In this document: positions 18,001-21,000 of the stretch, one piece after another
Numbering within the stretch: position 1 is the stretch's first letter
Layout: each line of letters opens with the position of its first letter
From: Trypanosoma brucei
Taxonomy: Eukaryota
Length of the DNA: 64,000 bases
Direction of reading: 5' to 3'
Assembly: GCA_000002445.1 (NCBI GenBank)
Contig: CP000070.1
Span: forward strand, 1,728,001 to 1,792,000
Program-made: the position numbers

Positions 18001-21000
18001 TTGTGGAATTTATGTCAAAACATGCCCGTCTCGCGTACCAACTGGGCCTTGGGACTCTAAGGCCATTTAGGAAAGTCAGTGCGGATAGTTCATCCAGACA
18101 TAACGACAGCAAGTTAAAACCAATGCGTCTGGTTATATTGGTCTTTATATGATAATTTTATATGTCCAACTCTCGGCGAGTCTATATTTCTTGTACAACT
18201 CGGAACACTTCACTTAGCCTATTGGTTCTCACAGCCGAGATCTTCGGATAATGTCATGGTCTTCCCTTCTACTCCTCCACTGGTACCTAGTGAAGGGGGA
18301 AAGTACACTGGGATACTCTCGCCACTCATCAGCTCAACGTAACTGACTCGCAATGATCCAATAAAGGATTGTCGATCGGAGGGGTTGGGGGAAATAGAAT
18401 CACCATAGTCGTCACTCGCGGATGTGTGAAACGCGGCGGTTAGGTGCGAGGATGACCTCATCTGCCGTAGGGCTGCCCCATTACTACGGACAGCCATATC
18501 CAGAGCATCAACTGACAAACAATGTGTTCCGTCAACGTCGCACGCATTAGCTTCGCATGTTGGCAACGGTACCTCTTCTGTTTGAGTTTCTTTTTCATGC
18601 GATAAATGAATGGAACCAGCCTCATCTTTCAAGGTCCCTGACGCCATATCGCCGCCAGCTTCATTACTTTGGTGACGTTCCCCGGCACCGGCATGGGGTG
18701 TAGCGTCAGCATCCGCGACATCTGAACCTCCTGGAACGGTCGGGTATGCTAATCCCATCCCCTTGTTCACAGGAACGTGCCGCTCAACCTTTAGGACAAA
18801 CTGCCGCGGAAGGCCCCCAGACATATCCGCGAAAATTACCTCCAAAGAAACTTTGACTTCGGACGGAAACGGAAGCAGTAAAAAGATAAAGGAGTCTAAA
18901 AGCAACGAGTCGACAGAGTCATCTTAACCAGCTTCTTCACACACACACACACACACACATACATACATACACGGCAAGAATAGATTTTCCACGACCTCTG
19001 CGGCCACACCGATCGCAGAACCGCGCAGCGGCACCCCCTCCGGTCGGAAGGACAAGGACCGGTCCAACTCGCATAATCACTCCACATAGCACAGTGGATC
19101 GAAATTTGCCCCTCCCGCGCCGTGTCATCTCTGCGCGGAAAACAAAAAAGTCGGCGTCGGTCCACCCGGTCAACCGCCGCGACTAACGGCGTCAGTTCAC
19201 CTCTCTGCGGAGGGGACGGACGCACCGCCACCGCCGCTGCGGCCATGGGTTATCGCATCTAAGAAAAAAAAATCTGCAGTGGGGAGGGGCATTCACGTAT
19301 AAGAGTCGGCCCCCAGAAGGGCCGTTGCGTTACGCCGTAGCGTCCCAGAAGGCGGTGGGTGCAGAGATTAGCTTCAGTTCCCGTGCTTGGAGAGGTTTGA
19401 TAACACGCCCTGTGGGAGGGCGGATCCCGCAGGAGTTATTCACTCCTGTCGGCATTGGGACAAAATTTCCGGCGCAAATATTAATATGAGGCAGCTGGTC
19501 ACAGTGCCCCACCACGCGACTCATCCCACAAACTGGAAGTTGGGGTCCGCGTATTTTTTGCTTTTCCTTAACCCATCACCGCTCAGCCGTTGTACGTGGA
19601 GGTGGATGCCCCAGCGGAACAAGGGGTCCATCCGTGGGAGCGGAACTTGGTAATTCATTCAACATGGAAGACAGCGGTGCGCCTGGGTCTACTGCCCGTT
19701 ACTGCCCGTTACTGCCCCTTTACCTCGAGTTTTTCACTCTGCTGATTGCCGGTCCTGGTGACCGAAGTCCAACACCGACGCACTGAATCGCGCAGAGGTC
19801 GTGTGCGTCAACTGACGCTGCGGGGACTTCCTAGGTCACTGTCTCGGTTCCGCACGGTCACGGCAGTTCAAAGTAACTTTGACGCGGGGGGGGGGGAGTT
19901 CTCCGACCAGTAGCTGCCCATGAGGTCGTGGGGGGCCCTTCGGGTGCGGTGTTGGCTACATTGCTTGGACTGCGTGTGCGCAGGATCATTTCCGCAAAAA
20001 TCTTAGGACAGGGTTCTGTCAACCTCTCCCCGTATTTTGGACCACAGACACCAGTGTCAAGAAAAGACGACAGTTGGTCGAAACTGATTCCTCAACGTTG
20101 CTTCAGGTTGCGTTTTGAGTTATTTTTTTTTAGCTGCGTTATAACTACTAGGGATGTGTTTCTGTCTGCCTCATCGGTTTTACCTGTTTTTTTTTTTAAG
20201 GCTGAAGAATTTTCCTTTCTACATAAAGCTGCTTTCCAGTGTTGCAGGTTCAAGGAAGGTAAGCAGACATGTCTAATGCCGAGGCCTACGATAAGAAGCT
20301 TAAAATGCTGGAAGTGAAGGCCCAGGGCTTACTTCGTGATTTAAAAACAACAGCAGATCCCATTCGGCGACTTCGCTGTCATACGGAGGCTCAAAATACG
20401 TTAAATGAGATTCAGCAAAATTACCAGTTACTCAAGACAGAGATACAGTTGCTTGAGGGTGACGAAGGAAAGTTATACAAAAATGCTGAACAGGAGCATG
20501 CGCATGAGCTAAGTAACTTGAAGCGCATGCTACAGCTGGAAAAGGCACCTGTCCCCGTCGTCCCGGGGGACCAAAGCAGCTCAATGTTCGGCGCGTTGCC
20601 GGCGACCGGCGACCGAAGAGAAGAAGCAAGACGCATCGCTCAAAGCGTTGTTACCATCCAGGGCACAACACTGGGCTCACTAGCGCAGGCCGAACGAGCG
20701 CTGCACGACACTGAGGAAGTTAGTGTGAATGCTACAACAAGACTTATTGCGCAGACGGAACAAATACGGAATATACGCGATCGTGTGGAGGACTTAGATT
20801 CCGAAGTTACACGAGCCAGGAAAGAACTAAACGAATTTATCCACCGAATGGCAACAGACAAGATTATCATTTGCTTTTACATACTTATAATGATAGGTAT
20901 TATTATATTTGCTACGTTAAAGTTTTTGCAAAAATAATGAAGCCGAGTTTTTTCTCCTTTTTACCCACTTTACAGCGTGCGGAACCACGGCCAAAGAACC

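Follow-up and report, generated by a model that had tools for sequence, protein, structure and literature searches.

Divergent strand-switch regions of Trypanosoma brucei, which lie between head-to-head polycistronic units, have been described as start regions for RNA polymerase II (Pol II) (Siegel, 2009; Kolev et al., 2010), and how Pol II finds the starts of polycistronic units in trypanosomes is only partly understood. Such start regions are 5–10 kb wide, and RNA tags bearing a 5'-triphosphate were enriched at all divergent units that carry the histone marks of Siegel (2009) (Kolev et al., 2010; PMC2936537). Such regions are characterized by H2A.Z, H2B.V, H4K10ac and H3K4me3 across the first genes of either unit. 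For 199 start regions, Wedel et al. (2017; EMBO J 36:2581) listed the 10-mers that are enriched at the 5' ends on the coding strand. In the first fifth from the 5' end, according to their Dataset EV1, the top 10-mer, GGGGGGGGGG, scores 132 on the coding strand and 17 on the non-coding strand, CGGGGGGGGG scores 13 against 1, and (TG)n-type 10-mers score 6–9 against 0–1. The same study reported a 4:1 sense bias at start regions, and its synthetic GT-rich promoters gave orientation-dependent transcription and H2A.Z deposition (Wedel et al., 2017). A different type of element, as later papers describe the work of Cordon-Obras et al. (2022), is represented by orientation-dependent, sequence-specific promoters, with a 75-bp promoter element in T. 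brucei.

We analyzed one stretch of DNA of 64,000 nucleotides (hereafter the window), which exact protein matches placed on chromosome 7 of T. brucei TREU927, bases 1,728,001–1,792,000. The offset of 1,728,000 between window positions and Tb927_07_v4 was taken from the 3'-UTR table of Kolev et al. (2010) and checked against novel transcripts from that study, with splice acceptors found at three of four 5' ends. An earlier note on this DNA had placed a flip of gene orientation within the window, and both the map of open reading frames (ORFs) and the annotated genes agree on such a flip across the gap listed in Table 1. Below 18.9 kb, ORFs of at least 150 aa lie mostly on the minus strand, the plus-strand exceptions overlapping longer minus-strand ORFs, and from 20.3 to ~35 kb they lie mostly on the plus strand. 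The plus-side boundary proposed in that note, 20269, is the start of Tb927.7.6440, whereas its minus edge at 18905 came from an ORF stretched to an upstream TTG; given that the annotated product of Tb927.7.6430 begins at an ATG at 18824, the latter is the true minus boundary.

Table 1. Positions of the features discussed in the text, numbered from the first base of the 64-kb window.
Feature	Position	Strand	Basis or remark
Divergent strand-switch gap, 1,444 bp	18825-20268 (chr7 1,746,825-1,748,268)		between Tb927.7.6430 (-) and Tb927.7.6440 (+)
Tb927.7.6430 coding sequence, 201 aa, T. brucei-specific hypothetical protein	18219-18824	-	exact match XP_846266
Tb927.7.6440, Vti1-like v-SNARE, 222 aa, first ORF of plus unit	20269-20937	+	exact match XP_846267
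Candidate trans-splice acceptors of Tb927.7.6430, polypyrimidine tract and AG	18858-18906	-	inferred from sequence
Candidate trans-splice acceptors of Tb927.7.6440: T9 (20123-20131) before AG (20132-20133); T11 (20187-20197) before AG (20199-20200)	20120-20200	+	inferred from sequence
(CA)11(TACA)3 on plus strand, (TGTA)3(TG)11 on minus coding strand	18938-18972	-	TRF; 5' end of minus unit
Inverted repeat, left arm, reads CGCAGAGGTCGTG on minus strand	18990-19002	-	perfect over 13 nt; (TG)n element 17 nt away, downstream in minus direction
GC-rich island, 0.53-0.65 GC against ~0.41 in flanks	19000-20000		composition
TTTTTTGTTTTCC, innermost GT-rich 10-mer match on minus coding strand	19137-19149	-	scan with Wedel 10-mers
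Tandem 10-mer: TACTGCCCGT TACTGCCCGT TACTGCCCCT	19690-19719	+	two perfect copies, third with mismatch; centre of gap
Inverted repeat, right arm, CGCAGAGGTCGTG	19791-19803	+	perfect over 13 nt; G11 82 nt downstream
G11 tract, inside gcggggggggggg (19884-19896)	19886-19896	+ (coding strand of plus unit)	
Novel transcript Tb7.NT.78	15780 to 14928	-	Kolev 2010, supplementary file 23
Novel transcript Tb7.NT.79	17114 to 15893	-	Kolev 2010, supplementary file 23
Novel transcript Tb7.NT.81	21134-22879	+	Kolev 2010, supplementary file 23
Histone H2A variant gene Tb927.7.6360, 179 aa	1044-1583	-	Pfam Histone and Histone_H2A_C; position in Kolev 2010 3'-UTR table

Polycistronic units thus stand head to head across the gap, the arrangement expected of a divergent Pol II start region, and the exact locus has been catalogued as such. 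Table S14 of Kolev et al. (2010; PMC2936537), which names units by their first annotated ORF and without initiation coordinates, lists "Tb927.7.6430 -> Tb927.7.6040, -, Divergent" and "Tb927.7.6440 -> Tb927.7.6490, +, Divergent" as putative Pol II units, so that Tb927.7.6430 is the first annotated ORF on the minus side. Published spliced transcripts border the gap on the expected strands, at 14.9–17.1 kb on the minus strand and at 21.1–22.9 kb on the plus strand; a polypyrimidine tract and AG lie immediately upstream of the 5' ends of both minus transcripts, and an AG lies immediately upstream of that of Tb7.NT.81. We have high confidence that the gap is a divergent Pol II transcription start region, as the earlier note had proposed and in agreement with the published catalogue. 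As a finding this is ordinary and adds little, the divergent start at this locus being already on record. The word "bidirectional", used in that note, is best understood as a pair of start regions that face outward and are each largely unidirectional, given the 4:1 sense bias reported by Wedel et al. (2017).

Start regions next to a tRNA, snRNA or rRNA gene form a class of their own, which does not explain this gap. ARAGORN returned no tRNA genes and Rfam no matches at the gathering threshold, and at E ≤ 1 over 17–21 kb a single bacterial sRNA family matched at chance level (E 0.72; 18 bits against a gathering score of 40 bits). With neither a tRNA nor an Rfam family found, a hidden small RNA gene in or near the gap was ruled out. 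The ORFs within the gap, at 18896–19246 (minus) and 19387–19653 (plus), matched no Pfam family and were taken as chance ORFs in GC-rich DNA. On the plus side, Tb927.7.6440 has weak Pfam matches to SNARE families and a hydrophobic C-terminal tail that, as read from the sequence, is likely membrane-spanning; its unit is short, with six annotated genes, and adjoins an internal VSG array.

The coding strands leading out of the gap carry GT-rich 10-mers of the kind described by Wedel et al. (2017). Matches to their 10-mers within the gap fall at 19885–19898 on the plus strand and at 18936–18963 and 19137–19149 on the minus strand, and over positions 1–19150 there are 3 matches on the plus strand against 48 on the minus strand. 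The strand of the matches therefore flips between 19149 and 19885, with the enrichment on the coding strand of either unit, and both GC skew and AT skew change sign at ~19150–19250, within the GC-rich island. On the plus side, the G11 tract matches CGGGGGGGGG, GGGGGGGGGG (twice) and GGGGGGGGAG of Dataset EV1. Its minus-side counterpart, a (TG)n/(TGTA)n microsatellite that had gone unflagged in the earlier note, contains five of the coding-strand-enriched 10-mers (TGTATGTGTG, TATGTGTGTG, ATGTGTGTGT, GTATGTGTGT and TGTGTGTGAA), and the length of its (CA)n tract differs among T. brucei-group genomes. That G11 and the (TG)n tract contribute to initiation as GT-rich elements is possible, with a chance that we would put a little below even.

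The G11 tract had been reported correctly, within gcggggggggggg, and the accompanying statement that poly-G runs occur at T. brucei start regions is borne out by Dataset EV1 of Wedel et al. (2017). No other G or C homopolymer in the window is as long, and a base-composition model predicts 0.008 G runs of at least 11 per window. Given that the window holds seven G/C runs of at least 8, long runs appear to be a habit of the T. brucei genome, and they are not strictly confined to the coding strand, with C9 at 21230 and C10 at 22688 on the sense strand of the plus unit. Conservation, which had been suggested as a check on both the tract and the 10-mer repeat, was found for neither. In three other T. 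brucei-group genomes (T. b. gambiense, T. b. equiperdum and T. equiperdum), GGGCGGGGG replaces G11, and the orthologous gaps of T. vivax, T. cruzi and T. theileri contain no G run of at least 8. Given that the uninterrupted run is lost in relatives, G11 would be dispensable, which weakens the claim that it matters; with GGGCGGGGG in its place in close relatives, it appears to be one redundant instance of a GT-rich class and not a required element.

The triplicated 10-mer of the earlier note exists as an array, shifted by one base from the reported 19691–19719, with the first base of the quoted string misread (19689 is C, not T) and a mismatch in the third copy. TRF reports period 10, 2.8 copies and 100% match over 19690–19717. 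Allowing at most one mismatch, the unit matches seven times in the window against 3.1 expected, three of the seven being the array itself, so that it is not dispersed. The same three T. brucei-group genomes have only two imperfect copies, TGCTGCCCTT TACTGCCCCT, a 10-bp indel relative to TREU927; the gaps of T. vivax, T. cruzi and T. theileri lack the motif, which is also not among the start-region-enriched 10-mers of Wedel et al. (2017). Neither retention in relatives nor recurrence elsewhere, as would be expected of a functional tandem repeat, was thus observed. The earlier note had assigned the 10-mer no role, rightly so: most likely the array is a recent, TREU927-specific duplication of 10 bp by replication slippage, and in all likelihood it is neutral.

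To compare the locus with other trypanosomes, orthologous loci were reached via DUS3, the search with the SNARE protein having returned only the T. b. gambiense copy. In T. vivax, T. cruzi and T. theileri, orthologues of Tb927.7.6440 come first on the plus side, and all three species retain a divergent gene order upstream of this SNARE gene, together with a GC-rich island and a coding-strand GT/T bias. No conserved blocks were found between the T. brucei gap and the gaps of these three species (best blastn E 0.15; nothing with nhmmer). The unbroken run of G and the third copy of the 10-mer are thus alleles of one strain, whereas across species the GC-rich island and the G/T bias of the coding strand are retained without sequence similarity. 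This pattern fits redundant, composition-based dispersed promoters better than fixed motifs, and it is a caution not to infer function from an isolated homopolymer or short tandem repeat of a single reference genome.

A perfect inverted repeat of 13 nt brackets the gap centre, an observation made post hoc among many repeat classes. Dinucleotide shuffling reached an exact inverted repeat of this length in 2 of 500 shuffles, and CGCAGAGGTCGTG occurs in the 64-kb window only at its two arm sites. The other repeats of the gap (D2–D5 and I2–I5) are at chance level by a rough expectation, with D3 (14/15 nt) marginal. Going outward, either side presents first the 13-mer and then the GT-rich tract.

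These features admit readings in which short motifs or DNA structure, and not dispersed GT-richness, would set the starts. Initiation could be fixed by short sequence-specific core promoters, one per direction, with CGCAGAGGTCGTG as their shared element, and the rarity of the repeat and the placement of each arm on the coding strand, just upstream of the GT-rich tract of its own side (17 and 82 nt), are what such promoters might look like. Two promoters of the sequence-specific type are reportedly found between divergent units, each of them unidirectional. The post hoc nature of the find speaks against this reading, however, and so do the gaps of T. cruzi and T. theileri, which hold no inverted repeat of this kind and give no sign of a general feature of such gaps, and the lack of sequence similarity to any orthologous gap; the presence of CGCAGAGGTCGTG in T. 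b. gambiense and T. b. equiperdum is uninformative at ~98% identity. We regard core promoters of this kind as highly unlikely here, and we give scarcely any more credence, indeed marginally less, to the specific proposal that CGCAGAGGTCGTG is a core-promoter or factor-binding element that would set the inner boundaries of both start regions, with a GT-rich tract beyond each arm. Should the 13-mer recur in outward orientation at further divergent gaps, a concrete cis-element would be in hand for the start of Pol II transcription of trypanosome polycistronic units. Similarly, G11 might act through non-B DNA, as a G-quadruplex or as rigid, nucleosome-excluding oligo(dG), and so form a discrete mark of the plus start-region boundary. 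G-quadruplex ChIP-seq in T. brucei has reported enrichment at transcription start sites, oligo-dG has been described as bending-averse, and the 5' edges of start regions are strongly enriched in G-runs (Wedel et al., 2017). Yet no canonical four-tract motif overlaps the tract with loops of up to 7 or up to 12 nt, such motifs in the window lying elsewhere, so that a G-quadruplex at G11 fails the canonical definition (four tracts of at least three G, short loops). The interruption of the tract in the three related genomes and its lack of a counterpart in the other trypanosomes weigh against the reading as a whole, which we consider very improbable.

Two further readings concern where the minus start lies and what else the gap centre does. 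Restricted as it is to one lineage, Tb927.7.6430 may be a spurious ORF; the minus start region could then reach, or be situated, farther to the left, for example at ~15–17 kb, and 18825–20268 would be the right part of a 5.5-kb ORF-poor switch region. The protein has no Pfam family and no orthologue in the T. vivax, T. cruzi, T. theileri or L. major loci, and the switch-nearest ORFs of T. cruzi, T. theileri and T. vivax are lineage-specific too; the first conserved minus gene, Tb927.7.6420, is reached only at 14314–14706, and a G10 on the minus coding strand (15058–15067) is conserved in the subspecies. However, minus-strand spliced transcripts already start at 17114, and initiation must therefore lie to the right of that position, and the minus-strand 10-mer matches and the skew extend to ~19150. 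A start further left, which we hold to be rather unlikely, would moreover move the edges of the feature without altering what it is, given that start regions are 5–10 kb wide anyway. It is less improbable, albeit still on the unlikely side, that the gap centre is also or mainly an ORC1/CDC6 binding site and possibly a replication origin, with the GC-rich core and the repeats tied to replication. Tiengwe et al. (2012) found ORC1/CDC6 bound at 70% of 88 divergent strand-switch regions, centrally between two H4K10ac peaks, and 19 of 42 early origins centred on divergent regions. On the other hand, no entry for this gap was found in the supplements of that study, in which ~80% of ORC1/CDC6 site groups were not active origins, and a role in replication would leave the strain-specific G11 and 10-mer unexplained; it is also compatible with a start region.

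Our preferred reading remains that of a divergent start region between two units, most likely made up of two outward-facing, dispersed GT-rich promoters as in Wedel et al. (2017), and we hold it with good confidence. The leftward promoter would serve the unit from Tb927.7.6430 to Tb927.7.6040, and the rightward one the short unit from Tb927.7.6440 to Tb927.7.6490, which ends before the internal VSG array. Between the two, ~0.8–0.9 kb of the GC-rich island (~18975–19885) would part the sides. Going outward on the plus coding strand, Pol II would meet G11, then T-rich tracts and splice acceptors, and then the SNARE gene; on the minus coding strand, TTTTTTGTTTTCC (19149 to 19137) and (TGTA)3(TG)11 (18972 to 18938) would lie ahead of the splice acceptors of Tb927.7.6430. 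By analogy with the reporter and ChIP data of Wedel et al. (2017) from other loci, such strand-asymmetric G/T-rich tracts may bias initiation toward the sense direction and favor unstable, H2A.Z-containing chromatin. The tripled 10-mer, as a slippage duplication in TREU927, would have no role in initiation.

A histone gene in the same window had also drawn attention. Tb927.7.6360, which we take to be H2A.Z, encodes an H2A-type histone by its Pfam domains, as the earlier note had stated, and lies ~17.3 kb from the gap. Its proximity was considered probably a coincidence there, and we agree; the sole link is its location within the minus unit that begins at the gap (Tb927.7.6430 to Tb927.7.6040).

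Among known systems, the GT-rich promoters of Wedel et al. (2017) share with this gap the flip of strand within it and the top strand-biased 10-mers, matched by G11 on the plus side and by the (TG)n/(TGTA)n tract on the minus side. They differ in that the G-run of this gap is interrupted in sister subspecies, the tracts here being candidate elements, and in that a G run of at least 8 and (GT)5 are both missing from the T. vivax, T. cruzi and T. theileri gaps, which show only a general GT/T bias. The unidirectional promoters of Cordon-Obras et al. (2022) resemble the locus in layout, two outward halves with a central spacer, and the 13-nt repeat can be read as one element per direction; the likeness is one of layout only, not of motif, and the 13-mer lacks cross-species support. 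The dispersed promoters of mammalian CpG islands offer an analogy only: a GC-rich island of ~1 kb, a CpG observed/expected ratio near 1.0 and divergent, broad initiation are shared, whereas the units at this gap are polycistronic and trans-spliced, and there is no evidence of regulation by DNA methylation. The 10-mer array, one unit apart between strains, and the varying (CA)n length match the slippage polymorphism of micro- and minisatellites without differences. The closest likeness is to the divergent strand-switch and start regions of T. brucei itself (Siegel, 2009; Kolev et al., 2010), with which the gap shares head-to-head units, freedom from Pol III genes and strand-specific flanking spliced transcripts; it does not differ from them in kind, and its local traits are the short plus unit beside the VSG array and a T. 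brucei-specific first ORF on the minus side.

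The evidence supports the reading proposed in the earlier note, that the gap between Tb927.7.6430 and Tb927.7.6440 is a divergent Pol II start region. The two units stand head to head and are both listed as divergent Pol II units (Kolev et al., 2010; PMC2936537), strand-specific novel spliced transcripts flank the gap (minus strand, 17114 to 15893 and 15780 to 14928; plus strand, 21134 to 22879; Kolev et al., 2010), and GT-rich tracts of opposite orientation lie ~0.9 kb apart across it. Exact protein look-ups assigned the window to chromosome 7 of T. brucei brucei TREU927, its position of 1,728,001-1,792,000 (Tb927_07_v4) was fixed via entries of the Kolev et al. 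3'-UTR table, and with this offset a polypyrimidine tract and AG stand exactly before three of the four published novel-transcript 5' ends. The name Tb927.7.6440 was assigned to XP_846267 from its position beside Tb927.7.6430 and Kolev Table S14. The orientation switch described earlier is present, with one boundary corrected: given that 18905 reflects only an upstream TTG extension and that the annotated ATG of Tb927.7.6430 lies at 18824, the gap spans 18825-20268 (1,444 bp). No tRNA genes were detected in or beside the gap, nor any credible Rfam family, the single match being at chance level (E 0.72).

Coordinates of features at the gap, in the wider window and in related loci (window positions unless a locus is named)
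Feature	Position	Strand	Remarks
H2A variant gene Tb927.7.6360	1044-1583		
C10	15058-15067		G10 on minus coding strand; within published transcript Tb7.NT.78
Tb927.7.6430 (switch-nearest ORF)	18219-18824	-	201-aa hypothetical protein, "T. brucei spp.-specific"; exact protein look-up
(CA)11(TACA)3 microsatellite	18938-18972		reads (TGTA)3(TG)11 on minus coding strand; TRF; not flagged in the earlier note
Inverted-repeat arms (13 nt)	18990-19002 and 19791-19803		
Tandem 10-mer array	19690-19719		TACTGCCCGT, TACTGCCCGT, TACTGCCCCT
G11	19886-19896	+	uninterrupted; within gcggggggggggg (19884-19896)
Tb927.7.6440	plus ORF right of gap	+	Vti1-like v-SNARE, XP_846267; exact protein look-up
tRNA-dihydrouridine synthase 3 (DUS3)	next plus gene after v-SNARE	+	exact protein look-up
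C9; C10	21230-21238; 22688-22697		plus-unit sense strand; within Tb7.NT.81
(TG)45, perfect	30788-30877		plus coding strand; between two plus-unit genes
Four VSG genes or pseudogenes, followed by RNase H/zinc-finger ORF	40704-54885 and 56886-58898	+	chromosome-internal VSG array, to which the strand refers; AT-rich spacers
(TAA)52	45237-45392		among AT-rich VSG-array spacers
GC-rich island upstream of SNARE gene	19000-20000; T. vivax (L004) 5032-7282; T. cruzi (L005) 4951-5700; T. theileri (L006) 5392-5641		
Switch-nearest ORF, T. vivax	L004 5767-6621		284 aa
Switch-nearest ORF, T. cruzi	L005 4701-5231		176 aa
Switch-nearest ORF, T. theileri	L006 4729-5172		147 aa

The G11 string reported in the earlier note was confirmed on the plus strand. 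The tract exceeds every other G or C homopolymer of the 64-kb window in length, and a composition model predicts 0.008 G runs of at least 11 there; given that seven G/C runs of at least 8 occur in the same 64 kb, long runs are a habit of the T. brucei genome. Wedel et al. split 199 start regions into fifths and tabulated 10-mers at least 6-fold enriched on the coding strand (Wedel et al., 2017). Consistent with the note's remark on poly-G at such regions, GGGGGGGGGG tops this list (132 coding vs. 17 non-coding occurrences, 5' fifth), which also holds CGGGGGGGGG (13 vs. 1) and GGGGGGGGAG (7 vs. 1) for the 5' fifth as well as many (TG)n-type 10-mers, and synthetic promoters assembled from 10-mers of this kind gave transcription that depended on their orientation and led to H2A.Z deposition (Wedel et al., 2017). 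When both strands of the window were scanned with the 157 listed 10-mers, plus-strand matches at 19885-19898 corresponded to G11, while minus-strand matches fell at 18936-18963 (the microsatellite, matching five of the 10-mers) and 19137-19149. The matched strand thus switches between 19149 and 19885, with 3 plus-strand vs. 48 minus-strand matches from position 1 to 19150. These matches on the respective coding strands place G11, in the plus start region, among the standard coding-strand elements, with the microsatellite as its minus-strand counterpart. A G-quadruplex at G11 is unlikely, as the tract falls outside the canonical motif definition. Elsewhere in the window, C9 and C10 runs on the plus-unit sense strand indicate that G/C homopolymers are not strictly G-on-coding-strand, and a very long GT tract, (TG)45, lies well within the plus unit.

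We compared four T. brucei-group genomes (TREU927, T. b. gambiense DAL972, T. b. equiperdum, and T. equiperdum OVI). The uninterrupted G11 was found in TREU927 only, the other three reading GGGCGGGGG; likewise, only TREU927 has three 10-mer copies, the others carrying TGCTGCCCTT TACTGCCCCT, a clean 10-bp indel. Both G11 and the third copy are strain-specific alleles, and G11 is individually dispensable, given that relatives lack it. The (CA)n tract varies in length, with T. b. gambiense and T. b. equiperdum carrying longer versions, and the C10 within Tb7.NT.78, unlike G11, is kept in these two genomes. The triplicated 10-mer described earlier is indeed a tandem repeat (TRF: period 10, 2.8 copies, 100% match), its string having been given one position off with a wrong first base. 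It is no dispersed motif in the window, where seven matches with at most one mismatch compare with 3.1 expected and the array itself contributes three. For the triplet, which is located in the central spacer of the gap, a recent slippage duplication with no function is the best explanation.

The gap centre lies in a GC-rich island (19.0-20.0 kb; 0.53-0.65 GC vs. ~0.41 in the flanks), within which GC and AT skew change sign at ~19200. A perfect 13-nt inverted repeat brackets this centre, reading CGCAGAGGTCGTG on each coding strand, with the GT-rich tract of the respective side just downstream. This length was reached in only 2 of 500 dinucleotide shuffles and the 64-kb window holds no further copies, but the observation was made post hoc and finds no support from other species, and we treat the repeat as a weak lead. 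In the T. equiperdum OVI contig (L001, ~570-680), an N run inside the gap is flanked by a duplicated ~65-bp stretch, so that the 13-mer occurs twice on the plus strand there; this looks like an assembly artefact. Judging from work at other loci, the GT-rich tracts would steer initiation in the sense direction and promote H2A.Z chromatin, and initiation would be broad, spreading over the first genes of the units. In 70% of divergent gaps, ORC1/CDC6 is bound at the centre (Tiengwe et al., 2012), so a replication role may coexist with this transcription role.

The minus unit starting at the gap (Tb927.7.6430 to Tb927.7.6040; Kolev Table S14) includes an H2A variant gene, a curiosity rather than a sign of feedback. 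The plus unit ends just before the VSG array; beyond this array comes an RNase H/zinc-finger ORF that we interpret as a retroelement fragment.

T. vivax, T. cruzi, and T. theileri retain the divergent arrangement on the upstream side of the SNARE gene. Neither the G-tract nor the 10-mer, whose conservation in T. vivax the earlier note had proposed to check, is present there, and the orthologous gaps of all three species lack G runs of at least 8 and 10-mer copies. The T. brucei gap has no detectable similarity to these gaps (best blastn E 0.15; nothing by nhmmer). In each species, a GC-rich island directly precedes the SNARE gene, and the coding strand is G/T- or T-rich on either side of the gap in all four; gap composition is conserved across these trypanosomes, while the sequence is non-alignable. 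The switch-nearest annotated ORF is lineage-specific in each species, with no cross-species homologue or domain found; gene calling in GC-rich DNA may have picked up chance ORFs here. T. cruzi and T. theileri have a WD40 gene beside the switch, which the T. brucei and T. vivax loci lack. In L. major (L007 2954-21243), the orthologues of the SNARE, DUS3, Tb927.7.6420, and the 1,456-aa protein encoded in the window at 9336-13706 are collinear on one strand, which also carries the orthologue of the 242-aa protein (8571-9299). Compared with Leishmania, the strand switch of the trypanosomes is therefore a rearrangement breakpoint. As a divergent start region the locus has been catalogued before, and its features are typical of this class.
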